From: an uncultured bacterium
GTDB lineage: Bacteria > Margulisbacteria > WOR-1 > CAZGTC01
Direction of reading: 5' to 3'
NCBI GenBank assembly: GCA_964528395.1
Contig: CAZGTC010000001.1
Location: 30,046-94,045 of the forward strand
DNA: 64,000 bases
The notes under the pieces: generated by a model
The model's database searches: none
Seen by the model: only the letters and a program-made list of their open reading frames with translations
What the model was told of the DNA's origin: nothing
Made by a program: the position numbers and the translations under genes
Shown: one piece after another, positions 2,459 through 61,538 of the stretch
How the letters are laid out: the number at the start of each line of letters is the position of its first letter
Numbering within the stretch: position 1 is the first letter of the stretch

Positions 2459-2863
2459 ATGATAAAATTAGCTGAAATGGATCAACAATTTACCGCAACT
2501 TTACAGTCTATATTTAAGGAAAAAAAATGGGTTAAACTGGCTTTTCTTTTTGGTTCCCAATCAAAAGGGAAAAACAGGTCGGAATCGGATTTTGATATTG
2601 CTATTTGGCCAGAAGAGACCGCCAAAGACAAAGATATCAATAATTTATGGTTGGAATTAGAAGAAACGTTAAAAAAATCCGTTGATCTGGTAAACTTATC
2701 TTCAGCTGCGCCTCTGGTTGCCTGGGAAGCCTTTAAAGGGACTCCTATAGATATAAAAGATCAGCGTTTTTATATTAACAAAATGCTTGAGGTTTCTTCT
2801 GAGGCAGAGGATTTTAGTCGGTTTGTTATTGATGTTTGGAAAGCTAGAGAGGCTAAAAAATGA
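2459..2863 (+). CDS. nucleotidyltransferase-domain protein (MNT-type antitoxin)
   Basis: 134 aa; minimal NTase motif GSQSKGKNRSESDFDIAIW; ATGA overlap with the downstream HEPN gene. Confidence 0.7.
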   Translation: MIKLAEMDQQFTATLQSIFKEKKWVKLAFLFGSQSKGKNRSESDFDIAIWPEETAKDKDINNLWLELEETLKKSVDLVNLSSAAPLVAWEAFKGTPIDIKDQRFYINKMLEVSSEAEDFSRFVIDVWKAREAKK

Positions 2864-3291
2864 TTTTTAGTGAAGCAGAAAAAGGAAGCATTTTTACCAG
2901 AATTAGTTTTCTTGAATCAGAATTAAAGGATTTGAGCGAACAAAAAAATATGGATTGGAAAACTTATTTAGAAAATAAGCTGCTTCGAAAAAATGTTGAA
3001 AGAACCATTGAAAATATTGTTAATGCGCTTATTGATATCAGTAAAATTGTTTTGTCGGATAAAGCAGCAGGAGAAATTCCGCAAACTTATGGGGCTGTCA
3101 TATTAAAGCTTTCAGAGCTTAAGATAATTGAGTTTGAGCTTGCGCAACAATTAGCAGAATATGTAAAATTAAGAAATTTTTTGTCGCATCAATATTTAGA
3201 TCTTCGTTGGGATAAGATTAAGGGGTTTTTAAAGGATGCTCCGGAGTCTTTTTCTCTATTTATCCAGCAAATCAAAAAAAATATTCCATAA
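2860..3291 (+). CDS. HepT-like HEPN-domain protein (DUF86-type toxin)
   Basis: 143 aa; Rx4HxY motif (RNFLSHQY) near the C-terminus; coupled to the upstream NTase. Confidence 0.7.
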   Translation: MIFSEAEKGSIFTRISFLESELKDLSEQKNMDWKTYLENKLLRKNVERTIENIVNALIDISKIVLSDKAAGEIPQTYGAVILKLSELKIIEFELAQQLAEYVKLRNFLSHQYLDLRWDKIKGFLKDAPESFSLFIQQIKKNIP

Positions 3292-3332: not shown

Positions 3333-4406
3333 ATGTGGCCTAAATTAATATCGCTTCTTAATAAAATATTTAAGCAATTGCAGCAGGTTGAGCCATTGCC
3401 AAATGAATATGATGTTGTATGGGAAGGGCCGTATTTTATTCCCCAAAAAAAGAAATGGTCCCCTTCGCAATTTTTGTATTATAACGGAATTCTTTATTGT
3501 TCTCTTTTTATTGATTGGGGTACTTATCGTATGGATTGGAAGATAAAAGATAAAAAAATAAATTTTGAAACAGGATCTGGCAGCGGAGGAGATTATTATA
3601 ACAATGAATATCTCTGGGAAAGAGCTTTGACACAGATTTATCAAAGATTAAAAAGCGCTTTGAAGAATCCAGAAAGATATAATCGACACGTAAAACAATA
3701 TTTGCCATTTGCTTGTCAAGAGGGAAAAATTGAGCGCCGTTATACTTGGGATAGAAAAACAAAAAGTATTATTCCTTTTTCAAAAATTCAACACTTAGAA
3801 GATTTGCTAGCTGAAGCAGCTAAGTTGGAATATTTATCTCAAATGACACTTAGAAAATATTTAGAAACTGTTGCTATTACAAAAAATGCAGTGTTTAAAG
3901 GCTTAAAATCTTTATCTCTTGTTGAAAAATACAAGAAGCGAGCAGATACTAGGCATGGAGGCTTGCTTGATCTTCCTATGGATGATGCTGAGGCTTTTAA
4001 AAATTGGTATTGCTCAGGACGTTGGGCAGGATCTCATCCTTGGGAGATTGTTTATGGCCATCCCCATGGGATTATGCTAGCGCCACATCATGATGAAAAA
4101 GGTTGGAAATATATCTTATGGGTGGATTCCCTGGGCTGGTATGATTCGGCTGCTTATATGGCCATTGCTCTTGGAGAGAAGAAAATTTTCTTTGAGTTTC
4201 GCGACTCTCAAGAAATAATATCAGCTTTAAAAGGGGCAGATTTAGTGGAGGTTGGGCCCTTTTTTAGGATGGTTTCGTATGAGGAATTAAAGAGGGAGCG
4301 GCCGGAGGTAATAAAATATATTCAATGGAAACCCCTTTCACAATTTAAACTTATTACTCCAAATCAAAAAGAGCGCTTGCAAAGTATGCTTAAAGGAGTT
4401 TTATGA
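3333..4406 (+). CDS. hypothetical protein
   Basis: 357-aa ORF with ATG start; no family recognised by eye; 4-nt overlap with the next gene. Confidence 0.5.
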   Translation: MWPKLISLLNKIFKQLQQVEPLPNEYDVVWEGPYFIPQKKKWSPSQFLYYNGILYCSLFIDWGTYRMDWKIKDKKINFETGSGSGGDYYNNEYLWERALTQIYQRLKSALKNPERYNRHVKQYLPFACQEGKIERRYTWDRKTKSIIPFSKIQHLEDLLAEAAKLEYLSQMTLRKYLETVAITKNAVFKGLKSLSLVEKYKKRADTRHGGLLDLPMDDAEAFKNWYCSGRWAGSHPWEIVYGHPHGIMLAPHHDEKGWKYILWVDSLGWYDSAAYMAIALGEKKIFFEFRDSQEIISALKGADLVEVGPFFRMVSYEELKRERPEVIKYIQWKPLSQFKLITPNQKERLQSMLKGVL

Positions 4407-4963
4407 ATATTTTAGCTATATTAGGCAGTCCTCGTCGAGGCGGAAATTGTGAAAAGCTGCTGGATCAAGCTATTAAAAGTCAAAAGTCACAAGTTAAAAG
4501 TCACAAGTTAAAAGTCACAAGTTGCAAGAAAATCATTTTAAATGAATTAAATTTTCGGCCGTGCCAAGCGTGTGAAGAGATAAATCAAGACGGCACCTGC
4601 AAGATTCAAGATGATTTCAAGATCATTGAAAAAGCGGTTTTTGAGGCTGACATTATAATTTTGGCTTCACCTATTTATTTTGGTTCAATTTCTGCGCAAA
4701 CAAAAATGATGATTGACCGCTTCCAATGCCTTTGGCGAGCAAAAGAAAAGGGCCAAGTAGTCCCGCCTCTATATCATATAATAATGTTGCGGGATCCCGT
4801 ATGCGGGACAAGGGCCAAGGGCCAAAAAAAAGGATTCTTTATTTGTGTGCAGGCGGGAAATCGGACGGACTTTTTTGATAATGCCAGGGCAATCGTAAAA
4901 AACTTTTTTGCAACTATCGGCGCTTCTTACGAAAAAGAATTATTAGTCCCCAACCGAGAATAA
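4403..4963 (+). CDS. flavodoxin-like NAD(P)H-dependent FMN reductase / iron-sulfur flavoprotein family
   Basis: 186 aa; N-terminal ILGSPRRGGN and ILASPIYFGS flavodoxin-fold signatures; contains an in-frame tandem DNA repeat at ~4483-4530. Confidence 0.65.
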   Translation: MNILAILGSPRRGGNCEKLLDQAIKSQKSQVKSHKLKVTSCKKIILNELNFRPCQACEEINQDGTCKIQDDFKIIEKAVFEADIIILASPIYFGSISAQTKMMIDRFQCLWRAKEKGQVVPPLYHIIMLRDPVCGTRAKGQKKGFFICVQAGNRTDFFDNARAIVKNFFATIGASYEKELLVPNRE

Positions 4964-4977
4964 AGAAACTCTTAAAA

Positions 4978-5150
4978 GCCCTCATCCTAACTTCCCCAAA
5001 CTTGAAAGCTTTCTTTTCTGCAACCTTCTCCCACAGGAGAAGGAATGATTTTTAAACAAAAACTTATTTAGTCCCTCTCCTTTTAGGAGAGGGTTGTTTT
5101 GGAATTAGCTAACACATAAGAGATGTTGGGTGAGGTTTTAGCAGACCCAC
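4978..5150 (+). repeat. MITE-like composite intergenic repeat, copy A
   Basis: Modules ccctcatcct ... ccttctcc-caca-ggagaagg (5024-5043) ... ccctctcc-tttta-ggagaggg (5073-5093) ... gggtgagg (5128-5135); same module order as copies at 20800, 22827 and 61364. Confidence 0.6.
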
Positions 5151-5162
5151 CTAAAAAACTTC

Positions 5163-5190
5163 TTGACAATATTTTTTTGGCAAGTATAAT
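5163..5190 (+). promoter_or_regulatory. sigma70-type promoter upstream of hcp
   Basis: TTGACA (5163-5168), 16-nt spacer, TATAAT (5185-5190); RBS AAGGAGA precedes the ATG at 5234. Confidence 0.55.
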
Positions 5191-5233
5191 AGGTATAGCA
5201 AGTACTTATTATAAATAATTAAAGGAGAAAAAT

Positions 5234-6823
5234 ATGAATATGTTTTGCTTTCAATGCGAACAAGCCGCCAAAGGAAAAGGGTGCGAGATCCAAGGGGTAT
5301 GCGGAAAAAAGCCTGAAGTCGCGGCTCTGCAGGATTTGCTTGTTTATAAATTGCTACGAATTGCTGTCCTTAGCGACAAGTCGCGACTTGTTGCTAGGGA
5401 TAATTTTATAATTGAAGCTCTATTTTCAACTGTAACTAATGTTGATTTTGACCCAAAAAGGCTAAAAAAATATATTGATAAGGCGGATGAAATATTGGAA
5501 ACAAACGCAAGCCTTGAGATTGATGATTTAATCAAACAAGGCCAAGCCATCCAGTCAAAGCTCTTTTTTAATTTAACTGAAAATTCAGACGTTAATAGCT
5601 TAAAAAGCCTGCTTTTATTTGGTTTAAAGGGCATGGCTGCTTATTATGACCATGCTTCAATTTTGGGGCAAAAAGACGAAGCTGTAATATCTTTCTTTTA
5701 TAAAGGGTTAAACGCCTTGGCCGCGGAAAATATTTCAGTAGACGAGCTGATCAGCTTAAATATGGAGTTTGGCCAGGTTAATCTAAAATGCTTGGAGCTT
5801 TTGGACAAGGCAAATACCCAGCATTTTGGGCATCCTGTGCCGACCAAAGTTTCTCTCGGGGTAAAAAAAGGCCTAGCGATTTTGGTTTCTGGCCATGATT
5901 TATTAGATTTAGAAGAACTGTTAAAACAAACCGAAGGCAAAGGCATAAACATTTATACTCACGGAGAAATGCTGCCTGCTCATGGCTACCCAGCCTTAAA
6001 AAAATATAAGCATTTGGCGGGGAATTACGGTGGAGCCTGGCAAGACCAATATAAAGAATTTGCAGCTTTTCCGGGTGCGATTTTAATGACTACTAATTGT
6101 ATCCAAAGGCCCGCGGATTCTTATAAAAATAGGATTTTTACAACTGGGCTGGCGGCTTGGCCGGAAGTTGTACATATTTCAGATCGAGAACCTGGCAAGC
6201 CAAAAGATTTTTCTCCTTTGATTGAGGCAGCCAAAAAAGCTGACGGGTTTGAAAAAGATGAAGAGGGAAAAGAAATAATGGTGGGGTTTGGCCGCAATGC
6301 AGTGATGTCGATAGCAGATGAAATAATAGAGGCAATCGAAGCGGACCAAATCAAACATTTCTTTTTGATCGGCGGATGCGATGGGGCAAAGCCGGGCAGG
6401 AATTATTATACGGAATTTGCGCAATTAGCACCGAAAGATACAGTGGTTTTAACTTTGGCGTGTGGTAAGTACCGCTTTAATAAACTGGATTTTGGCGATA
6501 TTAACGGAATCCCGCGGCTTTTAGATATCGGCCAGTGCAATGATGCTTATTCTGCGATCCAGATTGCCTTGGCCTTAAGCAAAGCTTTTAACATGGGAGT
6601 AAATGAGCTTCCTTTGTCTTTAATTTTATCCTGGTACGAGCAAAAAGCAGTTTGTATTTTACTAACTCTGTTATCTTTGGGAATAAAAAATATAAAGCTT
6701 GGGCCCAGCCTGCCAGCTTTTATCTCTCCCAATGTCTTAAAAGTACTGGTTGAAAAGTTTAATATCGCGCCGGTGAAGACAGCACAGGAGGATTTGAAAG
6801 AGATATTAGAAAAAAAGGGATAA
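5234..6823 (+). CDS. hcp: hydroxylamine reductase / hybrid-cluster protein
   Basis: 529 aa; N-terminal Cys cluster FCFQCEQ...C...GVCGK and conserved GHD, GGCDGA, ACGKYRFN, GQCNDAYS blocks. Confidence 0.9.
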   Translation: MNMFCFQCEQAAKGKGCEIQGVCGKKPEVAALQDLLVYKLLRIAVLSDKSRLVARDNFIIEALFSTVTNVDFDPKRLKKYIDKADEILETNASLEIDDLIKQGQAIQSKLFFNLTENSDVNSLKSLLLFGLKGMAAYYDHASILGQKDEAVISFFYKGLNALAAENISVDELISLNMEFGQVNLKCLELLDKANTQHFGHPVPTKVSLGVKKGLAILVSGHDLLDLEELLKQTEGKGINIYTHGEMLPAHGYPALKKYKHLAGNYGGAWQDQYKEFAAFPGAILMTTNCIQRPADSYKNRIFTTGLAAWPEVVHISDREPGKPKDFSPLIEAAKKADGFEKDEEGKEIMVGFGRNAVMSIADEIIEAIEADQIKHFFLIGGCDGAKPGRNYYTEFAQLAPKDTVVLTLACGKYRFNKLDFGDINGIPRLLDIGQCNDAYSAIQIALALSKAFNMGVNELPLSLILSWYEQKAVCILLTLLSLGIKNIKLGPSLPAFISPNVLKVLVEKFNIAPVKTAQEDLKEILEKKG

Positions 6824-6865
6824 GGTGAGGGAGAAGAATGAGTTTTTTAGAAAGGAGGTGAAAAA

Positions 6866-7159
6866 ATGACAATTGACGAACTTAATATTTTTTTAGAGAA
6901 AAATTTAGAAGTTGAATGGCATCAAGATGATGACGGAACTATTTATTTGCGCCATTCGACATTTGACGATCCAACAGAAAAGCTTAAGATTGCACCTGGT
7001 GCGCTAGAAAAGATCTCGGTTTCACAACTAAAATCTTTGCTAGTGGGTGGCCGCAATATAGAGCATATTACCCGCATAACCGGGTATTTTTCAAAAGTTG
7101 AGGGCTGGAATAAGGGAAAACAAGGAGAATTAAGGGATCGGCAGAGGGTAGCGGTATAG
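6866..7159 (+). CDS. small protein resembling the glycyl-radical C-terminus of class III ribonucleotide reductase NrdD
   Basis: 97 aa; C-terminal TRITGYFSKVEGWNKGKQGELRDR resembles the NrdD motif TRVCGYLG...NAGKQEEVKRR; strong RBS GAAAGGAGGTG. Confidence 0.5.
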   Translation: MTIDELNIFLEKNLEVEWHQDDDGTIYLRHSTFDDPTEKLKIAPGALEKISVSQLKSLLVGGRNIEHITRITGYFSKVEGWNKGKQGELRDRQRVAV

Positions 7160-17889: not shown

Positions 17890-18800
17890 GTTTAATAAAA
17901 GACTTAATTATTATTGGGGGAGGGCCGGCGGGAATCACGGCGGCAATCTATGCAGCCCGCAAGCGCTTGAATTTTTGCCTGCTGACGCGGGAAGTGGGGG
18001 GGCAGACTGCTTGGACCAGCAATGTAGAAAATTACACCGGCTACCAAATTATTTCCGGGCCGGATCTGGTGAAAAAATTCTACGACCAGCTAAAAACTTA
18101 TAAAATTGATCTGCGAGAAGGGCAAGAGGTTAAGTCCGTTGGAAAGAATGCTGGTATTTTTACAGTAAAAACTGCAAAAGACGAGGAGCTTCAAACTAAG
18201 ACGATTGTACTGGCTTCGGGCAAATATCCTCGGCGCTTGGGAGTTCCAGGAGAAGCCAAATTTAGCAATAAAGGGGTAGCCATCTGCGCAACTTGCGATG
18301 GCCCGATGTTTGCGGATAAAAATGTGGCGATTATCGGCGGCGGCAATTCCGCCCTGGATGCAGCTTTACAAATGATAAAGATTGCTGCAAAAGTCTATTT
18401 GATTACAGTAAATGATGATTTGAAGGGCGATCCAGTAATGATAGAAAAAGTAAAAACTGCAGAAAATATGGAAATTTTAACCAAAACGAAAACATTGGAA
18501 ATCTTAGGAGATAAGTTTGTTAAAGCCATAAAAATTGAAGAAAAAGGCGGAATTAGAGACTTAGTGGTTGAGGGAATTTTTGTGGAAATTGGCCTTGTGC
18601 CTAATGCGAAATTTATTGATTTTTTGGAAAAAAATGATCAGGGTGAAATTATCGTAAATTGTTTTATGGAAACTTCGGAACCTGGGATTTTTGCAGCTGG
18701 AGATGTTACACAAGTACCGGATAAGCAGATTATTATTGCAGCTGGGGACGGAGCCAAGGCGTGTTTGAGAGCCTTTCGTTACTTGTCAACGCATAGATAA
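17886..18800 (+). CDS. trxB: thioredoxin-disulfide reductase-like FAD/NAD(P) oxidoreductase
   Basis: 304 aa; GGGPAG FAD motif, redox CATCDG, second GGGNSA NAD(P) motif. Confidence 0.75.
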   Translation: MSLIKDLIIIGGGPAGITAAIYAARKRLNFCLLTREVGGQTAWTSNVENYTGYQIISGPDLVKKFYDQLKTYKIDLREGQEVKSVGKNAGIFTVKTAKDEELQTKTIVLASGKYPRRLGVPGEAKFSNKGVAICATCDGPMFADKNVAIIGGGNSALDAALQMIKIAAKVYLITVNDDLKGDPVMIEKVKTAENMEILTKTKTLEILGDKFVKAIKIEEKGGIRDLVVEGIFVEIGLVPNAKFIDFLEKNDQGEIIVNCFMETSEPGIFAAGDVTQVPDKQIIIAAGDGAKACLRAFRYLSTHR

Positions 18801-18837
18801 AGTAATAAGAAATAAGTAGTAAGGAATAAGAATAAAA

Positions 18838-19584
18838 ATGATACTCTGGCTTTATACTCTGGTTGCAGTTTTGATTGTCAGCTTATTTTCTTTAATTGGA
18901 ATTTTCACCGTAGTTTTTCGGATCAAAGACCTAAAAAATATCCTGCTTTTTCTGGTGAGCTTATCTGCAGGGACTCTTTTGGGCGGGGCTTTTTTACATC
19001 TCATTCCAGAAGCTGCGGAAAACGGTTTTTCTCTGGGAGTAAGTTTAAACATTTTATCCGGGATTATGGTTTTTTTCATCTTAGAAAAAATTATTTGCTG
19101 GCGGCATTGCCATATCCCCACCTCCAAAACCCATCCCCATCCTTTGGCTGCCATGAATTTGGTGGGGGATGCTTTTCATAATTTTTTAGATGGCACCATT
19201 ATTGCCGGGAGTTTTCTAGTCAGTATTCCTTTGGGTATAAGTACGACTTTGGCCGTGGTTTTGCACGAGATTCCTCAAGAAATCGGGGATTTCGGGGTGT
19301 TGGTGCATAGCGGCTATAGCCGATTAAAGGCTTTGATGATGAATTTTATGGTAGCCTTAACTTCTGTGGCCGGAGCAGTTGGGGTTTTGCTTTTGAGTTC
19401 TCAATTCCAAAAAATTTCTTCTTTTTTGGTGCCTTTTACAGCTGGGGCGTTTATTTATATCGCGGCTTCGGATCTAATTCCAGAATTAAAGCTTAATACC
19501 CAGGCAAAGCATTCGCTAGTCCAGCTTATAGTGTTGGTGTTTGGCATGGGGCTGATGGGCCTGCTTTTGCTGTTAGGGCACTAG
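18838..19584 (+). CDS. ZIP-family metal cation transporter
   Basis: 248 aa; multi-TM; HEIPQEIGDFGVL signature. Confidence 0.8.
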   Translation: MILWLYTLVAVLIVSLFSLIGIFTVVFRIKDLKNILLFLVSLSAGTLLGGAFLHLIPEAAENGFSLGVSLNILSGIMVFFILEKIICWRHCHIPTSKTHPHPLAAMNLVGDAFHNFLDGTIIAGSFLVSIPLGISTTLAVVLHEIPQEIGDFGVLVHSGYSRLKALMMNFMVALTSVAGAVGVLLLSSQFQKISSFLVPFTAGAFIYIAASDLIPELKLNTQAKHSLVQLIVLVFGMGLMGLLLLLGH

Positions 19585-20799: not shown

Positions 20800-20987
20800 C
20801 CTCACCCAAACCTCACCCTAATCTTTCTTATATGTTAGCGAATTCTAAAACTACCCTCTCCTAAAAGGAGAGGGATTATCTATTTTTCGCTCAAAATTAA
20901 ATCCTTCTCCTGTGGGAGAAGCCTGCCTGCCGGTAGGCAGGGTTGCATGCGAAAAGATTGCTAATAACGAGTAATCAGGATGAGGGT
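20800..20987 (-). repeat. MITE-like composite intergenic repeat, copy B (inverted relative to copy A)
   Basis: cctcaccc ... ccctctcc-taaaa-ggagaggg (20854-20874) ... ccttctcc-tgtggg-agaag (20903-20921) + inserted cctgcctgccggtaggcagg (20922-20941) ... aggatgagg. Confidence 0.6.
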
Positions 20988-22094: not shown

Positions 22095-22190
22095 ATAAGA
22101 AAGGGATCTAGGTTTCTAGGTATCTAGGTATCCAGATAAACTTGATCTCTTGATACCTTGATACCTTTTTTTGAGAGGAGGTGAAATAAA

Positions 22191-22826: not shown

Positions 22827-22988
22827 CCTCACCCCTACCCCTCTCCCTCGCTACGCTGGGAGAGGGACATTTTGTTATTCGTTGGGTTATAATATGAAAA
22901 TACAAATTTTAGGAGATCCTTCTCCTGAGGGAGAAGGCGGCATAAGATAAATCTTCAAGTTTGAAGGAGTTAGGATGAGGGCAAATCA
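22827..22988 (-). repeat. MITE-like composite intergenic repeat, copy C; terminus overlaps priA RBS and start codon
   Basis: cctcaccc, ccctctcc-ctcgctacgctg-ggagaggg, ccttctcc-tgag-ggagaagg, then gaaggagttaggATGagggcaaatca; the rc of copy D ends in the same taggatgagggcaaatca. Confidence 0.6.
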
Positions 22989-28952: not shown

Positions 28953-30059
28953 TTAATTTTCCTTTCTATTGCTTTTTTTTGGTTCTTCTTTTTTGCTTTT
29001 TTCCTTTTCATCATCATCATTTTTTTCTTTTTCTTCTTCTTCTGAAACATCGTTTATTTTTTTAGGCTTTTGCTCTTTGATGTGTTTTTTGACCTTGTCC
29101 AAAATTTCGCTGAATAGGGTTGGATTTTCTTCTAAATATTTTTGCGCGTTTTCCAGTCCCTGCCCGATCTTTTTTCCTTCGTAGGAGTACCAGGCCCCGA
29201 CTTTTTCAATGAAGTTCAAATTTGATGCAACCTCTACCAAGTCAACATATTTGGAAATGCCTTCCCCGTATTTAAGGAGGAATTCCGCGCTTTTAAAGGG
29301 CGGGGCAACCTTGTTTTTTACCACTTTTACATTTACCCGCGCCCCAATAATCAGGGTGCCTTCGCGGATTTTTTCAATCGGCCTAACTTCCAACCTGACA
29401 GAAGAATAAAATTTTAGCGCCCGGCCTCCAGGGGTGATTTCGGGGTTGCCGAACATGATCCCGACTTTTTCCCTTAATTGGTTGACGAATACTACGATGC
29501 TTTTGGATTTATTAACTACAGCAGTTAATTTCCTCAAGGCTTGTGACATGAGCCGGGCTTGCAAACCGATCCTGGCTTCGCCCATTTCGCCTTCAATTTC
29601 AGCCTTGGGAACCAGTGCTGCCACAGAGTCAATAACAATAATATCAATGGCTCCAGAGCGCACCAGGGTCTCGGTAATTTCCAATGCTTGTTCCCCGTAA
29701 TCTGGCTGGGAAATCAAGAGGTCATCAATATTTACTCCCAATTTGCTGGCATAAACCGGGTCCATTGAATGTTCCGCATCAATAAAAGCAGCTGTGCCCC
29801 CGCTTCTTTGCACTTCAGCAATAGCGAGCAGCGTGACCGTTGTTTTTCCTCCAGCCTCGGGTCCAAAAATCTCAACGATTCTTCCGCGCGGCAGCCCGCC
29901 TACTCCCAATGCTAAATCCAGGGACAAGCAGCCAGTTGAAACAGCTTCGACCTTCATTTTTGAAGCTTCGCCCATTTTCATGATCGAACCTTTACCCCAA
30001 TTTTTTTCAATTTGCGATATAGCCAAGCCCAAAGCTTTATTTTTTTGATCAGTTACCAT
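28953..30059 (-). CDS. recA: recombinase RecA with extended charged C-terminal tail
   Basis: 368 aa; Walker [10 protein letters not shown] and canonical RecA core; long Lys/Glu-rich tail. Confidence 0.95.
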
Positions 30060-30121
30060 GATTCATTTTCCTCCTTTAATAATTAACAAGTCATAAGTTA
30101 TGAGTTATAAGTTATAGGTTA

Positions 30122-30673
30122 TTAGTTAATTTTCCCTCCTAAATTGAGCCAGAGAAAACCGAGAGCTGTTTGTGCGGCATTTTCTCTTATTTCGCTGCGG
30201 CTGCCGTTCAGGTGCAGTTCTTTAGCCTGCGTGCCTTTTTCGTTTGAAAAAGCTATAAATACTGTTCCTGGCTGCGCCCTTAAGAGCGGGTCAGGACCAG
30301 CCGCGCCGGTAGCAGACAAGCCAAGATTGGTTTTGAACCTTTGGCGGATGCCTTCAGCCATGGCAACCGCGGTTTCGCGGCTGACCGGGCCGAATTTCGA
30401 GATCACAGCTGGGGGAACATTGGCTTCCATAATTTTTATGCGGTTGTGATAGCAGACCGCACTGCCGATAAAATATTCCGAGGCCCCGGGAGGCGAAGAT
30501 AAGCGGCTAGAAATCATCCCGCCGGTCAAAGATTCAGCCACAGCAATGGTTAAATTATCATGGATTAAAATATCTGCAATTTGCTGGTCGGTAATTTTTC
30601 CGATAATTGACAGCATTTGGTCAAAAAAGGTTTCTAATTTTATTTCCGTTGTTTTTATTTTTTCTTCAGCCAT
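30122..30673 (-). CDS. pncC: CinA-family nicotinamide-nucleotide amidohydrolase domain protein
   Basis: 183 aa; AVAESLTGGMISSRL and SATGAAGPD motifs. Confidence 0.8.
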   Translation of the reverse strand: MAEEKIKTTEIKLETFFDQMLSIIGKITDQQIADILIHDNLTIAVAESLTGGMISSRLSSPPGASEYFIGSAVCYHNRIKIMEANVPPAVISKFGPVSRETAVAMAEGIRQRFKTNLGLSATGAAGPDPLLRAQPGTVFIAFSNEKGTQAKELHLNGSRSEIRENAAQTALGFLWLNLGGKIN

Positions 30674-31163: not shown

Positions 31164-32473
31164 GTAACCGGTCGGGCGAGAAGGTCATAAGGCAAGGCAG
31201 CTAGAACCTTGGCTTTTATGATTTCTCCTGGGTTTATTTTTTTGCCAGTTATTATAACCGAACCATCGATTTCTGGAGCATCCATATATGACCGGCCCAC
31301 GCTGCCTTTAGGAGTGACTTTATCTATTAAAACTTCGATTATTTTCCCGATCATTTTCTTGTTTTTCTCTTCTGAAACCGATTTTTGTAAACTCATTAAG
31401 GTTCTTAATCTTTTTCTCTTTAATGGAGCTGGAACCTGTCCCCTCATCTTATTTGCCAGCGTGCCAGCTTCTCGAGAATATTCAAAAACACCCAATCTTT
31501 CAAACTTCGTCTCTTTAACAAAATTAAAAAGTTCTTCAAAATCTTTTTGCGTTTCCCCTGGGAACCCGACAATTAAAGAAGTCCGAAGAACTATGCCTGG
31601 TATTTCCCTCCTAATTTTTTGAATGAGCCGGATGAGCTTATTTTTGGGCGTTTTACGGCCCATTTTCGATAAAATGTTATCACATATATGCTGGATTGGC
31701 AAGTCAAGATACTTAACGATTTTCTTCTCTTTTGCCATGATTTTTATCAATTCCGGGGTAATATGTTTGGGGTGGGTGTACATGATGCGGATCCATTTTA
31801 TGGCTGGGATTTGGCAAGTTTTTCGCAGTAATTCAACAAATTTTGGATGCTGGGTCGTGTCTTGGGCAACAAAAATGATTTCTTTTACCCCTTGTTTAGC
31901 TAATTGTTTTACTTCAGCGATGACATCGACTAATGGCCGGCTATGATAATTCCCGCGGATTGAGGGAATTAAACAATAAGAACAGCGGTTATTGCACCCA
32001 TCCGCGATTTTGACATAGGCAGTGTGGGGTGGGGTAAGTTTTAAACGCGGAATATTATGAGAAAATAGTATGGCTCCGGACTTAGCTTGGGATTTAGTAA
32101 TTGGGATTTTATTTGGATTTTGGATTTTGACATTGGGATTTTTTAGGAGGTCTAATATCTGTTCTAATTGATTACACCCTAGCCAAACATCAATTTCTTT
32201 TAGAGGAGGTTTTTTTTCACGCTTGGGCAGGCAGCCGATAACTGCCAAAATTTTACAACAGCCGGTTTTTTTGTATTGGCTGTATTTTTTTATGGTTTGA
32301 ATGGATTCTGCAACCGAAGATTTTAAAAATGCGCAAGTATTGATGAGAATAATTTCTGCGAGCTTAGGATTTGTGGTTAAACTAAAACCATTGGTCAATA
32401 ATATTCCCAAAACTGCTTCAGAATCAGTTAGGTTTTTTGGGCAACCCAGGCTTAAAAGATAGATTAAGTTCAC
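31160..32473 (-). CDS. rimO: ribosomal protein S12 methylthiotransferase
   Basis: 437 aa; SLGCPKNLTDSE, radical-SAM CNNRCSYC, C-terminal TRAM; GTG start overlapping doc stop (GTGA); in-frame repeat-derived segment at ~32095-32160. Confidence 0.8.
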   Translation of the reverse strand: MNLIYLLSLGCPKNLTDSEAVLGILLTNGFSLTTNPKLAEIILINTCAFLKSSVAESIQTIKKYSQYKKTGCCKILAVIGCLPKREKKPPLKEIDVWLGCNQLEQILDLLKNPNVKIQNPNKIPITKSQAKSGAILFSHNIPRLKLTPPHTAYVKIADGCNNRCSYCLIPSIRGNYHSRPLVDVIAEVKQLAKQGVKEIIFVAQDTTQHPKFVELLRKTCQIPAIKWIRIMYTHPKHITPELIKIMAKEKKIVKYLDLPIQHICDNILSKMGRKTPKNKLIRLIQKIRREIPGIVLRTSLIVGFPGETQKDFEELFNFVKETKFERLGVFEYSREAGTLANKMRGQVPAPLKRKRLRTLMSLQKSVSEEKNKKMIGKIIEVLIDKVTPKGSVGRSYMDAPEIDGSVIITGKKINPGEIIKAKVLAALPYDLLARPVT

Positions 32474-34695: not shown

Positions 34696-34781
34696 TGAAG
34701 TAATAAGCAATAAGAAATAAGTAATAAGAAAAAGATTATTTTACATCGATTTTTGGGCTGACGAAGAGAAGAATAAATATA

Positions 34782-36168: not shown

Positions 36169-36513
36169 TTACTTCTGTGAATTTATCAAGCCGGAGAACA
36201 TTTTTGATAATTCTTCTACTATGCTATTGAATTTTTCTATTGTTTCTTCTCCAGGATTTGAATGCAATAAAATAAGATCAAAACAAGTTGCCGTTTCATT
36301 TAAAGAAGCCCTTGCTGTAATATAGAAATGCTTTTTATCGTTTTTTGTAAATCTGCCATAACCTTCAGAAAAATTTAAGATAATCGAGATGACTGCCCTT
36401 AATATTTGGTCTTTTAATGGTCGGGGAACATTGGTATTAAGGCAATTGTTTACTAAAGAATATAACTCTTTTGCCTTTTTGTAGATTTCTTTATCTTTAA
36501 AATCAGTAAACAA
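36169..36513 (-). CDS. four-helix-bundle protein (TIGR02436 / 23S rRNA IVS protein family)
   Basis: 114 aa; characteristic ILNFSEGYGRF ... ITARASLNET pattern. Confidence 0.8.
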   Translation of the reverse strand: MFTDFKDKEIYKKAKELYSLVNNCLNTNVPRPLKDQILRAVISIILNFSEGYGRFTKNDKKHFYITARASLNETATCFDLILLHSNPGEETIEKFNSIVEELSKMFSGLINSQK

Positions 36514-36644
36514 AGCTTTTTTCCTTCTTTTTTCTTATTTCTTGTTACTTATTTCTTAAATATTGCGAAAGACAAGGGGGACTTATTAAGAAACAAGTAA
36601 TAAGCAATAAGTAGCAAGAAAAATATTGCTTTCGCAATATTTTA

Positions 36645-36716
36645 TGGGCCTTGTAGGATTCGAACCTACAACCAATCGGTTATGAGCCGAGTGCTCTACC
36701 CTTGAGCTAAAGGCCC
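36645..36716 (-). tRNA. tRNA with CAT anticodon, elongator type; probably tRNA-Ile2 (lysidine)
   Basis: GGGCCTTTAGCTCAAGGGTAGAGCACTCGGCTCATAACCGATTGGTTGTAGGTTCGAATCCTACAAGGCCCA folds as a cloverleaf; G1:C72 paired so not initiator; tilS is 2 kb away. Confidence 0.8.
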
Positions 36717-48143: not shown

Positions 48144-51100
48144 TTAATTTTCTCCTCTAGCCTCGAGTAATCGGTTTATCTCGGCGGATATGTTTAATAT
48201 TGTCTTGATTTCCGATTTTATTTGAGAAGGGATTTTTTCTTCTTTATCATAGGAATAAAGAATGTTTTTAATGGTTAATTCTACATAAAGTTGAGTATCG
48301 ATAACATATGCTGTTAATTTAGGATTTGCTGCAATGTTTCTCACGGCTTCTATTTGAGAATATAAAGCAGAAAGTAAATTTAATATTTTTTCCAGAGTTA
48401 AATTTTGCGGATCTGCCAGATAGGTTAGAGCTTTATTAAGAGATATTTCTGGGTTATCGTTGATTAAATCATTGGTTGTAGTTGGCGGCAGGGGTGGTGG
48501 AGCAAGGGGTTGTGGAGCTGGTTTTGATGCTTCTTCTGCTTGTTTTCTTTCTAATTCTTCTAGTTTTTGTTCTACGCTTGGTAAATTTTTTGATACACCC
48601 CTGTGTGTTTTAAGTATTTTCTGTAGATATTCTAGGGCAATTCGGCAGTTTTTTACCTCATTTGTTTGCGGCAATGTTTCAAGCTGCGTTAAAAAATCTA
48701 TTCGTTTCATCCAAAACGCTGCAGCGGAGAATATAAGGTCGTGCGGAAGATTGGATTCTGCTTCTATGGCTCTCAAGTGTCCGCTCAAAGTTGCCATAGG
48801 GCTGTTTATTAAATCATTTGCTTGTAGCGCTTGAATTCTAATTTTAATTTCTTCAATAGAAGTCGAAGGCAACCTCAAAGATGCTGCTGGAGGTGCTGGA
48901 GTAGGTGCTGGAGGTGGGGTTTTTTCTTGACCCTTGACCCTTGCTACTTGTTTCTCTTGTTTTGCGGATGGAGTTTGTGGTGAGGTGAAGGGTTTTTCTT
49001 TAGGAGGCAGAAAATTGGCGGGTTCTACAAGAGCTGGCGCTGGTGCAGGGGGGGGAGGTGTGTGTAACAAGGAATCAGCAGCAGCATTGATACCTTCTTG
49101 AGAATAGGCTCGACCTGTTTCTCTTGATGAACCAATGAGTTCTTGTAATTTGGCATTAATTCTAGATAAATTATCCATAACGTTTTGTTTATTTTCTTGT
49201 AAATCTGCTTGCTCGGGAGCAATAGAGATAGCTGCTGTTTTGCGATAAATTTTTTCATAAATAGCAGCATATTGATTAGCTGCGTTAATATCGTTGGGAT
49301 TATTGGAATCAAGTGGAGAAATTATAGGCAATAGAAGATTAACTAGCTCTTCTAGTATTTTTATTGAAAGAATATCTTTTCTTTTTTCTCTTGATTCAAA
49401 GAAAGATATGAAGGCTTGGCATATATGGAAAGGAGTTTGGGCTTTTGTTAAATTAATAGTTAATAAAGAAATATCTCTTTTATCTGTTTTTGTTCTTATT
49501 TTATCATCAAAAATGCCAATAACTTCTTGAAGATTTTTAGGGAAATTTGCTCCCAAATGTTCAGTTTTCTTTTCTAATAAAGTATAAATATTTATAAAAA
49601 TTTCTAATGTTTCAAAAGGAGCCGAAGATATTTTTTGGATGGCGATTTTGTATAAGGAAATCGCAAGATTTACTTTTAAATTTTCCGCCAAATCCTCACG
49701 AATAATCCTCTCAATTTCTTCTGGTGCAGCCGCGGCCATGGCCTGCAAATGATGTTTTTCTAAAGTCGCGAGTTTGATTTCACTTCTTTGTCTTAATCCT
49801 TCATATTGATTTTTTATTGATTCTGGAGCGCGGTCAAATTTCCCCCATACAAAAACTGCGGCTTCGGTTATTTGTCCTGCGGCGCGGGCTTGTTCATGGG
49901 GGAAGGCGCGGTCAAAAGCCTTCGAATACTCCCCGACAATAGCCTCGATCCAGGCGGGGTTATAGGATAAGAGCTGGTAAGAAATATTTTGGAGGTCTTC
50001 AAGAGTTTTTGCTAAATCAATGGAATGAGGATTGCTAAATATGTTTTGATTGAATTGGGCAGAAAAATTTTGTAATTGCTCTCTTTCTTTTTTTCTTGTT
50101 TCTTCAACAAAAGCGTCTAATTCCTCTATATTTTGTGGAATCTGTAGATTGCTTTCCTCTTGATTTGATTGTTTTAAATCTAATAGTCTTTTAACCCCAG
50201 TATTACTTTGATTGGCATGTTGCCGGGCATATTGCAAGGTGCCTTTTTTTGGGCTGATAAGTCCGGGAAAAGCTGCTTCCAGCGCTTGTACGTCTTCTCT
50301 TGAAGGGACATATTGAGAGGCACATAAAAAATCAAGCAAGGCAGGAGTTCCCAAGCGAAAGATCCCTTCGCAATCGAGGAACATCAATTGTAAAGCGCGG
50401 GTTTTTAATGCTATCGCAGTTTCTCCTTGTAAATCTAATGCTGCCAATATGAGGCCGAACAATTCGATGTTTTTGCATTTAATAATAGCTAAAGTGGCAT
50501 TATAAATTAAGTCTTTTTGCGCAGGACTTAGGTTTTCTTCTTGCGCCAGGATAGAAACCGCACGAGGGAATTCAATGGCAACATCGGTTACGTCAATGCC
50601 GTTTTTTAGGGGCTGTAAATTATTTTTTATTTCTTTTTCATTTTTTCCATCTGCCTCAAGCCCTTCAATGATCTGCAACTGGCGCAGGGCTATATATAGA
50701 GGTTTTTTAGCTAAGTCTTGATAAACTATTTTTACTATGGCATTTAAAGAGTTTAATTTTTGGTCGTTAAATAGGTTGAATAGTAAGTGGTGTAATCCTG
50801 CGTAAGACTGGTCAACATCCTCTTCTATTTTAGTTTCTTTGGCATTAGCTAAGCGCAATAAAAAAAATAGTTCAAAAAGCTCGTTCATCTGCTGAAAACA
50901 TGTATTTTGGTCTAAAGGATTTAGCGAGTTTTGGATTTTAAAAGCCTCTCTTAAGGCAATATGTTTTAGCGTGATTACCTGGTTGTCTGCAGTATCCATG
51001 ATTATTTCTTTATGTTCAAAAATTTGCGTAACATATAAGCAGTTCATGGCAGTTTTGTAGAAGAGCAATGAAATATCCCTTAATTCTTTTTTGGATGGGA

Positions 51101-51539: not shown

Positions 51540-52796
51540 TTATTTCTTTTTGTTTCTTAACCAGCCAATAGCTTCTCTTGAGCTATATATAATTAGAGAT
51601 AGAATTAGAGATGCGGCTATTGTGATAAGAATGTTTTCACCCACGATATCTAAGTAATTGTCAGACCACAGATGTTCTGTTAGTTCTGGAGTCATACTTC
51701 CAGCATCAAAATAACTCAAAACTGATCCAGCAATTCCTCCACCAATTATTCCACCCCCTGCAAATTTCAATGCTGTCCGTATTTTGCTTGATTGTTTTTC
51801 TACACGGTCTTTTACTTTTTTTGTTGGGGGCTTTGCTGGTTTATTAGCTGGAGGAGGAGGGGTTTCTGGTGCTGAAGGAGGAGTTGGTACTGGTGTTGGA
51901 GCAGGAGATGTTGCTGATGCTGGAGAAGGAGTTACTGGTGGGGTTGGTGGCTGTTCTGAAACAGATGATGGTTTTTCTTGAGAGATAGTTTCTCTTCCGG
52001 TTCTTGGTTTTTCTCGATCAGAAATAAGTGTCTTTTTTTGTCCTTCAGTTGTTTGGCGCGATAAATCTGATAAATTTATAGGTTTGCGACCAGGAGCTGA
52101 TTCCGTCTCTGAATCTAACTCCTCAAAAATAAGATCAAGGTCATCTAACCCTTTTATTTCATTGCTAGAAGCAGGGGCAGGTGGGGTATTTATTACTCTT
52201 GGTTTTGGGGTAGACCTTCTTTTTTGTTTTTCAATTAGTATTAAATCTATCCCTCTATCGGTTGGTGCTTCTGGAGGAAGGGGTGGGAGGGAGACTGGGG
52301 GGGTGGGGTCGGCTTTATTAGGGTCTGGGGCGGCGGTTACTTCTGGCATTGAAACCCAAGGAGTTCCAACAGCATGTTGTCCGTTTGCAGTTTTGGAAGG
52401 ATCTAGTCTCTCAACTAATGCTTCTATTTCATTCCCTGTTTCTCCTTTTCCTCTTGGGACACCGGGTAATTTTGGACTAGTAACACCAGGAAGACTGGCT
52501 GGTTGTCCAATTTTTTCATCTTGAGTATCATTAGGTTTTTCAGCCATTTTAACTATTTGTATTTCATTTAAAGTTAAATCTTTTACTAATTTTCTTGTTG
52601 GGATTTCTTGCGAGCCGGTGGCAAGGGCGAAATTTTGATTAGAAATAGACAAGAAAGATTGCACAGCTGTTTTCCAACTGTCTAGCGCAATCCTAACTTG
52701 TGCTTCCCTTCCCTGAAAACACCGAAAGGTTTCGTGTGTTCTTCTCCAATTTGTTGCCGGGACATGATTTGCTATTCTTCCAAAAAAAGATGCCAT
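51540..52796 (-). CDS. proline-rich hypothetical protein with C-terminal hydrophobic anchor (first gene of operon)
   Basis: 418 aa; long low-complexity Pro/Thr/Ser region; C-terminus has two hydrophobic segments; RBS AGGAGG. Confidence 0.5.
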   Translation of the reverse strand: MASFFGRIANHVPATNWRRTHETFRCFQGREAQVRIALDSWKTAVQSFLSISNQNFALATGSQEIPTRKLVKDLTLNEIQIVKMAEKPNDTQDEKIGQPASLPGVTSPKLPGVPRGKGETGNEIEALVERLDPSKTANGQHAVGTPWVSMPEVTAAPDPNKADPTPPVSLPPLPPEAPTDRGIDLILIEKQKRRSTPKPRVINTPPAPASSNEIKGLDDLDLIFEELDSETESAPGRKPINLSDLSRQTTEGQKKTLISDREKPRTGRETISQEKPSSVSEQPPTPPVTPSPASATSPAPTPVPTPPSAPETPPPPANKPAKPPTKKVKDRVEKQSSKIRTALKFAGGGIIGGGIAGSVLSYFDAGSMTPELTEHLWSDNYLDIVGENILITIAASLILSLIIYSSREAIGWLRNKKK

Positions 52797-53006: not shown

Positions 53007-53034
53007 TTGACTCTTATATTGTAAATGATATAAT
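53007..53034 (+). promoter_or_regulatory. sigma70-type promoter upstream of the AbiEi-like/Fic pair
   Basis: TTGACT (53007-53012), 16-nt spacer, TATAAT (53029-53034); gene start at 53085. Confidence 0.5.
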
Positions 53035-53084
53035 CTATCCATAATGTTTACGAATAAACTATCTAAAATATTTACGGATAAAAT

Positions 53085-53759
53085 ATGACAACAATTAATG
53101 AAAAAGCCCATATTTTTTGGCAAAAACATGCAGACGAAGGGAAAATAGTTTTAACTAAAGAAGATTTTCCAAATGAATACATCCGGCGATTTTTAATTAA
53201 AAAAAGCTTTTTGTACCGGTTGCGCAGGAATTTGTATATCCTTAAAAACCCTTTAGATAGCCTAGAAGACATCATATATAAGAATTACTGGCAAATTGCT
53301 GCAACTGTTTTAAAAAGATATTATCCTTGGTCGATTGAGAAAGAAAATGCCCTAAGTTTATGGGCCGGCAGCCAAAGCATCCCAAATTTGCTAAAAGTAA
53401 GGACTGCCAAAATAATTAAAAATAAGATTAAGCTCCCTTTTCATATTAATATATCTGTTCGCCCAGATAAAATGTTTAAAAAAGAAACATCGGGCGAAAT
53501 AAAAATTAATAATTCCCGCATATTCTTGGATCTCCCAGAAAAAATAATCTTTGAAGCAAAAAATTTAGAAGACCCTAATTTAAAAGCTTTAATCAAAGGG
53601 CATAAATTTAATAAATTGCTTTTGGAGGCCCTTTATTCAAAAAAACCCAAGCCTATTGTGGCTAAAAGGCTTATTAAATTAGCAAAAGAACTAGGACAAA
53701 ATGATCTGCAGGAAGCATTAGAAAAAATAGCAAAAGAATATACTTACTATCGATTTTAG
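53085..53759 (+). CDS. hypothetical protein, possibly AbiEi-like antitoxin-domain protein
   Basis: 224 aa; N-terminal GKIVLTKEDF...YRLRRNLYIL resembles AbiEi-type wHTH; directly upstream of Fic gene. Confidence 0.4.
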   Translation: MTTINEKAHIFWQKHADEGKIVLTKEDFPNEYIRRFLIKKSFLYRLRRNLYILKNPLDSLEDIIYKNYWQIAATVLKRYYPWSIEKENALSLWAGSQSIPNLLKVRTAKIIKNKIKLPFHINISVRPDKMFKKETSGEIKINNSRIFLDLPEKIIFEAKNLEDPNLKALIKGHKFNKLLLEALYSKKPKPIVAKRLIKLAKELGQNDLQEALEKIAKEYTYYRF

Positions 53760-55666: not shown

Positions 55667-55765
55667 AAAAATGTCCGAATTTCCTAAATCCAAACAAGGA
55701 TTTTTATTTATAATAATTTTACATTGTTCGGATTTTAGGATTTTAGGACTTTAGGACTTTATTTT

Positions 55766-61363: not shown

Positions 61364-61538
61364 TGATTTGCCCTCATCCTAGCTACTTTAAATTTGAGAA
61401 TTATTCTTATGCAACCTTCTCCCTCAGGAGAAGGATATAATTTTATGCGAAGATCAATTAACCCCTCTCCCAGTGTAACGCGGGAGAGGGTAGCATGAGA
61501 ACAGTAGGCATCTTAGAAAAATTTGGGTGAGGGTGAGG
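61364..61538 (+). repeat. MITE-like composite intergenic repeat, copy D
   Basis: tgatttgccctcatcct ... ccttctcc-ctca-ggagaagg ... ccctctcc-cagtgtaacgcg-ggagaggg ... gggtgagggtgagg. Confidence 0.6.

Follow-up and report, generated by a model that had tools for sequence, protein, structure and literature searches.

How a tandem DNA repeat comes to lie in frame within an otherwise conserved enzyme gene, and what follows from its presence there, is the question raised by the stretch analyzed here, which comprises 64,000 nt of contig CAZGTC010000001.1 (assembly GCA_964528395.1, positions 30,046 to 94,045, forward strand) from an uncultured bacterium and is referred to below as the window. In the 5' part of a gene for a flavodoxin-like protein, the window carries a tract that the initial annotation described as about three units of a 12- to 13-nt repeat, potentially prone to slippage and affecting protein length. 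The tract is a heptanucleotide simple sequence repeat by its defining features, and it is probably a microsatellite which grew in situ by slippage in a lineage biased toward period-7 repeats, being tolerated because exactly seven residues were added to an unconstrained helix end and loop.

Anatomy of the focal heptamer array

The two features on which the argument rests are the following.

4403-4963, plus strand: host gene, encoding a 186-aa protein of the flavodoxin-fold FMN-reductase family (open reading frame [ORF], Pfam, AlphaFold2 [AF2] and Foldseek)
4475-4532, plus strand: focal heptamer array, with eight heptamer slots, inside the flavoprotein gene

The repeat string originally quoted is indeed present, at positions 4476-4528, and is in frame within ORF 4403-4963, where the array (54-58 nt in length) encodes residues 25-43 of the host protein, KSQKSQVKSHKLKVTSCKK, as the initial annotation wrote. 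Read in register, the array is AAGTCAA AAGTCAC AAGTTAA AAGTCAC AAGTTAA AAGTCAC AAGTTGC AAGAAAA, and its unit is, accordingly, 7 nt of the form AAG-N4, with a constant AAG core. A unit of 12 to 13 nt is not borne out, as Tandem Repeats Finder reported a period of 7 across 4475-4522 (6.9 copies, 78% matches) and a higher-order period of 14 across 4477-4523 (3.4 copies, 96% matches, score 87). The 14-mer AAGTCACAAGTTAA occurs approximately three times within the array, a repeat search returned three 24-nt copies at 14- and 14-nt spacing, and the most recent amplification was that of a 14-nt double unit.

Head-to-tail copies of a unit within the range of 1-11 nt place the tract among heptanucleotide long simple sequence repeats (LSSRs), or microsatellites, and its length exceeds that expected by chance. 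No arrays at periods 7, 14 and 21 were obtained in 20 shuffles, compared with 4, 6 and 4, respectively, observed in the window. The pattern (AAG-N4)x4+AAG, allowing at most one mismatch, matched 13 times in the window against 0.02 expected, while AAGTYAN x3, allowing at most two mismatches, matched 10 times against 0.04 expected, with all matches falling in the focal array or in an array at 30081-30128. A period scan with a mismatch penalty of -3 proved too strict for such degenerate units, returning nothing at period 7, and a softer score was used. No inverted partner for the array was found within the gene, where the repeat search detected only 9-nt arms of 89% complementarity.

The host flavoprotein and its seven-residue extension

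The description of the host gene as flavodoxin-like was upheld by Pfam matches to FMN_red (E=1e-18) and Flavodoxin_2 (E=3e-8), the match to PF03358 scoring 67.8 bits against a cut-off of 24. Because a sequence search against solved structures yielded weak matches only (1rli, E = 8.6e-6), a fold search was used instead; with the AF2 model of the protein (predicted local distance difference test [pLDDT] 83.9, predicted template modeling score [pTM] 0.81), Foldseek returned 2oys, 1rli, azoreductases (AzoR) and SsuE, all at a probability of 1.00. The product is, on this basis, a member of the FMN_red/flavodoxin-like-fold family, with putative FMN binding and reductase activity. It has 667 homologs, the named ones mostly from Omnitrophota/Omnitrophica metagenome-assembled genomes (MAGs), and residues C54, C57, C66 and C109 are invariant in a 20-sequence alignment.

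The sole close ortholog, P0002, is encoded on Logan contig L001 and is 72-79% identical in protein and 84% identical in DNA. Outside both of the repeat regions of the gene, the ratio of nonsynonymous to synonymous substitution rates (dN/dS) between the window and L001 is 0.086 (dS 0.83, 133 codons), compared with 0.32 inside them. The low core value and the raised value in the repeat regions show that the gene is functional in both lineages and that its repeat regions are relaxed, the core being under strong purifying selection.

Relative to its orthologs, the focal tract represents a net gain of 21 nt, or seven residues, equivalent to three heptamers. A seven-column gap lies opposite residues 31-37 in all 19 aligned homologs, and among the 58 homologous genes recovered from related loci and the window for comparison of segment length, the segment from LLDxA to PCxxC measures 25 aa in 55 genes and either 24 or 23 aa in one gene each, a length of 32 aa being found only in the window. 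An effect on protein length was, to this extent, correctly anticipated. The segment which carries the insertion is the least conserved part of the family and is variable in sequence in all homologs.

Alignment with orthologs, the check proposed in the initial annotation, thus reveals the seven-residue excess, but not a plain insertion into repeat-free sequence, as L001 harbors an array at the same site. That array, GAAAGTA GCAAGGG GCAAGGG GCAAGGG TCAAAAA, is shorter and built of a different unit, occupying five heptamer slots against eight in the window; the first and last slots are common to both, and the first heptamer of the window, AAAAGTC, corresponds to GAAAGTA of the ortholog. These shared terminal slots favor growth in place from local sequence. 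The difference in copy number (eight against five slots) is one between lineages, not between strains.

In the AF2 model of the window protein, helix α1 spans residues 15-33 and is followed by a six-residue loop, the block means of pLDDT being 90-95 for residues 11-40, whereas in that of P0002 the helix spans residues 23-37 (15-29 in window numbering) and is followed by a three-residue loop. The seven residues are, therefore, modeled as lengthening α1 at its end by approximately one helical turn and the α1-β2 loop by three residues. The extension is rich in Lys, Ser and Gln and is distal to the phosphate-binding GSPRRGGN loop, and its effect on the protein is probably near-neutral.

As a separate observation on the family, a C-terminal stretch of approximately 25-45 residues (after VPNxE), which is probably a helix, is absent from the flavoproteins of the window (4403-4963) and L001 (3947-4474) and present in the other 18 aligned homologs.

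A second repeat site in the same gene

Further downstream, the gene contains a second site of repeat-associated change.

4805-4825, plus strand: second in-gene heptamer array, GGGACAA GGGCCAA GGGCCAA (unit AAGGGCC; Tandem Repeats Finder)
4758-4806, plus strand: 49-nt piece interrupting the second array (repeat search, alignment)

The second array was reported by Tandem Repeats Finder with a period of 7, 3.0 copies and 92% matches, and the corresponding site in L001 reads GGGTCAG GGGTCAA GGGTCAA. A direct repeat of 13 nt, GAnAAGGGCCAAG, flanks the 49-nt piece on both sides (4745-4757 and 4807-4819). The piece carries the inverted repeat GTCCCGC/GCGGGAC and is in frame; together with the second array it accounts for 12 additional residues relative to L001. 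Residues 122-138, corresponding to this second insertion, are disordered in the AF2 model (pLDDT <50). The host gene is intact despite its two in-frame repeat-associated insertions. That the 49-nt piece is a dispersed element was considered and rejected, as neither the window nor any of the loci examined contains a further copy.

Period-7 arrays elsewhere in the window

The repeat homology elsewhere in the window that the initial annotation had pointed to was confirmed. Approximately eight AAG-core arrays, constituting a dispersed family, are present in the 64 kb, beginning at 4477, 4810, 18800, 30088, 34698, 36527 (minus), 36588 and 48919 (minus); those outside the flavoprotein gene belong to the following features.

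18800-18837, plus strand: AAGNAAT-type intergenic array, abutting the ATG of the ZIP transporter gene 18838-19584 (Tandem Repeats Finder, pattern search, Pfam)
30081-30131, plus strand: array AAGTCAT AAGTTAT GAGTTAT AAGTTAT AGGTTAT TAGTTAA (Tandem Repeats Finder, pattern search)
34698-34734, plus strand: AAGNAAT-type intergenic array, downstream of a methyltransferase gene
36516-36623, no strand assigned: inverted pair of AAGNAAT-type arrays (36516-36559 reverse, 36584-36623 forward), giving a long hairpin
48919-48956, minus strand: coding array AAGTAGC AAGGGTC AAGGGTC AAGAAAAAA, in the Pro-rich linker of a 1,124-aa protein

The array at 30081-30131 (period 7 and 5.9 copies across 30088-30128 according to Tandem Repeats Finder) is situated upstream of recA, between cinA (30122-30673, minus) and recA (28953-30059, minus), and is antisense to both genes (Pfam CinA and RecA). 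The kinship of this motif to the focal array, suggested previously, stands insofar as the array is real and the AAG-N4 family is common to both; the additional T-Y-A likeness is only weakly significant, since the window already holds approximately eight AAG-core arrays. The hairpin at 36516-36623 lies between a gene of the 23S_rRNA_IVP family (minus) and tRNA-Met (36645-36716, minus), and its folding gave z values of -4.9 and -5.6. The array at 48919-48956 encodes KQVARVKGQEK within a protein without clear domains (Pfam was not run on it), and its string is nearly identical to that of the array at the first site of the L001 flavodoxin gene.

Period-7 arrays and hairpins in related loci

The same periodicity dominates a set of 162 related loci (1.58 Mb; individual loci are given L numbers), mostly labeled Omnitrophota. 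Arrays were counted 53 times at period 7, 34 times at period 14 and 28 times at period 21, against 0-16 at periods that are not multiples of 7. With a column-conservation detector, the number of arrays was 91 for period 7, 15 for period 6 and 3 for period 8; these counts are only roughly comparable, as the thresholds of the detector vary by period. Although approximately 89% of the DNA lies in long ORFs, 37 of the 53 period-7 arrays are fully intergenic, an excess which fits selection clearing most coding arrays. Comparable arrays occur in many independent MAGs and in one single-amplified genome (SAG). Within array units, a core of 3-4 nt is constant while the remaining positions vary, and the core is specific to the genome: AAG-N4 was found only in the window (5/5 hits) and TAG-N4 only in L046 (4/4), with CAG-N4 in seven other loci.

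Remodeling of a coding linker is apparent in a second gene family, encoding a 4Fe-4S protein. The linker contains AACGAGC x4 in L032 (6743-6784), AAGGCTC x4 in L097 (1310-1350) and a duplicated 14-mer, ACGGAATACGGACG, in L037 (5458-5493), while its flanks are approximately 88-90% identical between L032 and L097. The lag-7 match fraction of these three linkers is 0.55-0.75, compared with 0.13-0.35 at lags 6, 8 and 9. The 4Fe-4S linker repeats the pattern of the flavoprotein, with a different unit at the same site.

Many of the intergenic arrays form inverted pairs with loops of approximately 1-110 nt and long stems (z ~ -5). The pair in L046 (1770-1866), with a folding energy of -47.4 kcal/mol (z -5.1), stops immediately ahead of a Shine-Dalgarno sequence; further inverted pairs are located in L012 (172-280), L018 (11201-11300), L023 (4730-4866 and 4949-5060), L074 and L132, and L004 (15443-15521) also harbors a hairpin-type heptamer array site. 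In L023, an array of this kind occupies nearly every intergenic spacer of the 5.7-kb contig. Array hairpins adjoin tRNA genes in three genomes, namely, the window (tRNA-Met), L023 (4869-4944) and L004 (15524-15598). Rfam scans at gathering thresholds of the window and seven array-rich loci returned tRNAs only and no family for the hairpins. L074 (3116-3280) and L132 (2865-3045) share conserved hairpin arms, GTAACT-(CAGGAGC/CAGAATT)n ... (ATTCTGG/CTCCTG)n-AGTTAC, but have unrelated loops and outer flanks, which, on sequence comparison, suggests a mobile array-armed hairpin element.

Predicted consequences of slippage and search for variants

In simulation, slips of ±7, ±14 and ±28 nt gave products of 33-42 aa, with the stop codon inside the array, whereas slips of ±21 nt kept the frame and gave products of 179 or 193 aa. 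Because single-unit slips truncate the protein, they would turn the gene off and not produce length variants, so that the anticipated effect on protein length does not extend to slips of 7 or 14 nt and is restricted to those of ±21 nt. The unit is not divisible by 3 and lies in the 5' coding region (codons 25-43 of 186), thereby possessing the frameshift property of a contingency locus; an ON/OFF switch of the type described for neuO is mechanically possible, and the tract is a potential loss-of-function hotspot.

No allele with another copy number was found in the protein databases or in genome and metagenome contigs, nor was any relative of more than 79% identity found among 5.8 billion proteins or the contig collections. 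The near relatives in the protein database were limited to the identical protein (P0001, a single-member cluster) and P0002, and the best relatives in scans of genome and metagenome contigs were 51-53% identical. Contig L162 (ENA ERZ27284381), from the only other assembly that covers the tract, was recovered via the neighboring Hcp; it begins 11 nt upstream of the focal array, is 100% identical to window positions 4464-6979 (2,516 nt), with the same array, and represents the same strain as the window.

Origin and persistence of the array

The preferred explanation envisages that slipped-strand mispairing would expand heptamers in place, in a lineage prone to period-7 arrays, which the names of the homologs suggest to be Omnitrophota, from a unit derived from the local coding sequence, with the last rounds copying the 14-nt double unit. 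The array would persist because the net gain of three heptamers (21 nt, or 7 codons) keeps the frame, and because it falls where α1 terminates and the loop toward β2 begins, a variable position away from the GSPRRGGN loop. We infer slippage as the generating mechanism, and neutrality of the outcome, from what was directly documented, namely, the anatomy of the array, the seven additional residues, the orthologous arrays, the purifying selection, the modeled location, the period-7 excess and the frameshift consequences.

Several observations weigh against this explanation. Slippage itself was not seen, the databases and contigs searched having yielded no allele of another copy number. Outside their constant AAG core the heptamers are degenerate, and cores differ by genome (AAG-, TAG- or CAG-N4), which pure local slippage does not predict; a constraint across the whole genome, or exchange among arrays, is hinted at. 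An unrelated gene of the window and the L001 flavodoxin gene contain almost identical strings, AAGTAGC (AAGGGKC)n. Finally, arrays have been kept at both sites in two orthologs separated by a dS of ~0.8, a persistence that needs continual turnover or repeated origin.

In an alternative that is considered unlikely overall, the array stems from an actively maintained, lineage-specific AAG-N4 system, sustained by a trans-acting factor or by conversion or mobile hairpins in the manner of short tandemly repeated repetitive (STRR) or repetitive extragenic palindromic (REP) sequences. The array would then have entered or been remodeled within the gene by exchange and might act at the DNA or RNA level in the coding sequence. 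The genome-specific core triplet (AAG-N4 in 5/5 hits in the window, TAG-N4 in 4/4 in L046) and the similar strings at unrelated loci are as such a system would have them, and of the approximately eight AAG-core arrays six run in the sense of the local gene and one against it, the orientation of a further one being ambiguous. The abutment of one array on a start codon (18800-18837), the stable hairpins made by inverted pairs beside tRNA genes in three genomes and the arms conserved between L074 and L132 amid an unrelated loop and flanks point in the same direction, with precedents in the cyanobacterial STRR hairpins (PMC2670836) and the TAACTGA arrays of Beggiatoaceae (PMC4679880). However, the coding array lacks an inverted partner, and its first unit matches the ancestral local sequence, which argues for in situ growth. 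No candidate binding protein was identified, the AG dinucleotide in the 7-mer core is statistically not compelling and units vary between arrays of a single genome (AACGAGC and GTTACTG in L032). A HutP-like reading, based on an NAG-N4 triplet register, was also considered; AG is estimated to occur by chance in approximately 60% of 7-mer units.

In a broader form, which we also hold to be unlikely, Omnitrophota and related genomes would contain actively maintained, lineage-specific NAG-N4 array systems (AAG-N4 in the window, CAG-N4 or TAG-N4 in relatives), of which the flavoprotein tract would be an outpost, serving as a reversible frameshift switch or as a regulatory site within the coding sequence and not representing debris of slippage. 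Such systems could be read by a trans-acting RNA- or DNA-binding factor in a 7-nt register, or could spread as array-armed hairpins located beside tRNA genes and in the spacers between cistrons.

A phase-variable contingency locus of the neuO type, in which slips by numbers of heptamers not divisible by 3 turn the gene OFF and a subsequent slip restores it, is regarded as rather improbable. Unit length, the 5' position of the tract (codons 25-43 of 186) and the simulated outcomes (33-42 aa after ±7, ±14 or ±28 nt, full length after ±21 nt) are those of such a switch, for which neuO of E. coli K1, with AAGACTC heptamers in its 5' coding region (PMC13001214), provides a precedent; the start of L162 at 11 nt upstream may reflect an assembly-graph branch, a weak indication. 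Yet the tract comprises just seven degenerate heptamers (78%), or 3.4 14-mers, against the 3-53 perfect units of neuO, no OFF allele or length variant was seen in the databases and contigs searched, and both known alleles, those of the window and L001, are in frame. Moreover, the host is a cytoplasmic redox gene under strong purifying selection rather than one concerned with the cell surface or host interaction, and the second repeat site in the gene, together with linker arrays elsewhere, points to a general mutational process.

Very improbable is an adaptive insertion at the protein level, whereby the Lys-rich extension of α1 would tune an interaction surface, for example, toward Hcp as a redox partner encoded downstream. 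The extension is modeled as a helix with high confidence (pLDDT block means of 90-95), 21 nt correspond to one protein heptad, longer neuO repeats have been reported to raise enzyme activity (in work cited in PMC13001214) and hcp lies directly downstream of the flavoprotein gene both in the window and in L001. This adjacency recurs, however, in only 1/161 related loci, on which ground functional coupling to hcp was rejected as a general link; furthermore, the insertion occupies the least conserved segment of the family, with a raised dN/dS of 0.32, and its sequence is set by a nucleotide repeat read in three frames, with no evident protein motif.

An assembly artifact or a chance low-complexity stretch is scarcely credible, for while MAG assemblies can mis-size repeats and the contig of the second assembly ends 11 nt from the array, the 54-58 nt probably fit within a single read (the read length was not checked), that second contig carries an identical sequence, the frame is intact, the shuffle expectation is ~0 and comparable arrays exist in many independent MAGs and one SAG.

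Little is at stake for this gene alone beyond an account of its seven-residue oddity and a likely hotspot of frameshifts, for which annotators and MAG curators should be prepared. A more interesting lead than the focal array is offered by the wider pattern of period-7 dominance, linker remodeling and intergenic hairpins. Should that pattern hold, the still unexplained phenomenon of heptamer repeats would include a large uncultivated phylum, providing many natural cases in which a slippage bias of the polymerase might be separated from a function dependent on a binding factor.

Other repeats and neighboring genes in the window

Most AAG-type arrays of the window end in AAGAAAA. The gene that adjoins the array hairpin at 36516-36623, a 23S_rRNA_IVP gene (36169-36513), encodes an Avd-like four-helix bundle and prompted consideration of a diversity-generating retroelement. 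The idea was dropped because the scanned flanking ORFs gave no reverse transcriptase match and because the AAG core does not vary at its A positions.

The spacer that separates the flavoprotein gene from the hcp promoter (4964-5233) contains approximately 190 nt absent from L001. The additional DNA consists of REP-like palindromes, CCTTCTCC-N4-GGAGAAGG and CCCTCTCC-TTTT-GGAGAGGG, which recur in the window at 20826-20921, 22917-22982 and 61410-61435.

Weaker period-7 tracts with the unit ATTTTGG / CCAAAAT are found at 2154-2186, in the MetW gene, and at 32112-32129, in a MiaB-like radical-SAM gene. The former encodes FGLWILRFGFLL, which resembles a conserved motif, such that the periodicity may be fortuitous. 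Other unit lengths are also represented. Inverted octamer arrays, (TCTAGGTA)n / (CTTGATAC)n, followed by a T-run are located at 22102-22175 between two plus-strand genes, a configuration that looks like an intrinsic terminator built of tandem units, and an octamer array at 55730-55761, GGATTTTA GGATTTTA GGACTTTA GGACTTTA, stops 4 nt before the ATG at 55766. Directly ahead of the gene that begins at 53085, a direct repeat of 24 nt, ATAAACTATCCAAAATATTTACGA, occurs in 2.4 copies (53030-53086) and could be an operator or iteron-like site. Within the minus-strand gene 51540-52796, in-frame repeats of 24 and 48 nt occur at 51847-51947; their plus-strand consensus, GCTGGAGGAGGAGATGTTACTGGT, would read as Gly-rich, although the minus-strand gene's own translation was not checked. 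Lastly, a HepT-like toxin gene (2860-3291) is preceded by a small ORF (2459-2863, not scanned), which may encode a candidate MNT-type partner.

Comparison with known heptamer systems

Among repeats with units of 5-11 nt, heptanucleotides are the most abundant LSSR class in many prokaryotes, and polymerase slippage has been proposed as their origin (Mrazek 2007, as summarized in PMC4679880); PMC4692102 likewise notes that heptameric repeats are in excess in bacteria. As with the LSSRs of Mrazek, Guo and Shah (2007), insofar as these are represented in PMC4679880, the arrays described here consist of head-to-tail 7-nt units beyond chance expectation, and the related loci share with them the dominance of period 7 and the bias toward noncoding DNA. 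The focal array differs in that it lies in a conserved enzyme gene, where a net gain of three units keeps the frame, and in that its units, constant only at a 3-nt core, are degenerate and not near-perfect; with a heptamer identity of 78% and 3.4 copies of the 14-mer, it is not a long near-perfect tract. The single full-text literature search for heptamer repeats in Omnitrophota returned nothing on the topic.

The canonical STRR units are CCCCAGT, TTGGTCA and CAACAGT. In cyanobacteria, STRR sequences consist of 7-bp units and form intergenic hairpins whose function is unknown, with roles in transcript stability or translational coupling having been proposed (PMC2670836). Their dispersal as families of 7-bp arrays in one genome and their hairpin architecture are mirrored in the window and its relatives, and tolerance of an insertion inside a functional gene has a parallel in the STRR within an RNase P RNA gene indicated by the title of Vioque 1997 (cited in PMC2858038). 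In contrast to STRR sequences, which have heterocystous cyanobacterial hosts, the loci considered here belong to another phylum, bearing the names Omnitrophota/Omnitrophica, and possess units of the form AAG-N4, CAG-N4 or TAG-N4, while the focal array is direct, protein-coding, without an inverted partner and, being wholly within coding sequence, not intergenic.

In the gene neuO, of prophage CUS-3 in E. coli K1, the 5' coding region contains AAGACTC heptamers, and full translation occurs only at copy numbers divisible by 3; neuO alleles contain 3-53 perfect units, most often approximately 20, and are OFF in 65.6% of genomes (PMC13001214). The focal gene is alike in having an AAG-N4 heptamer in the 5' coding region, in that three units equal seven residues and in that, by simulation, a full-length protein is obtained only when multiples of three units keep the frame. 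The two differ in that switching at the population level is documented for neuO, while the focal tract comprises seven degenerate units in a redox gene of the housekeeping type, with no variation observed.

The TAACTGA arrays of marine Beggiatoaceae, Cyanobacteria and Bacteroidetes constitute, like the present arrays, a heptamer family specific to the genome and are mostly intergenic, often ending a few nucleotides upstream of start codons (MacGregor 2015, PMC4679880), and a minority lie within ORFs at peripheral, tolerant positions (PMC4679880). Whereas these are exact copies of one heptamer across phyla, in the present arrays only a core of 3-4 nt is constant and differs by genome; their placement is nonetheless matched by the window arrays at 18800 and 36527 (minus) and by the coding arrays in linkers. 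Coding and hairpin-free, and without the long perfect tract or the observed switching of neuO, the focal tract would, by analogy, work mechanically like neuO, and it resembles the STRR and TAACTGA families at the level of the genome.

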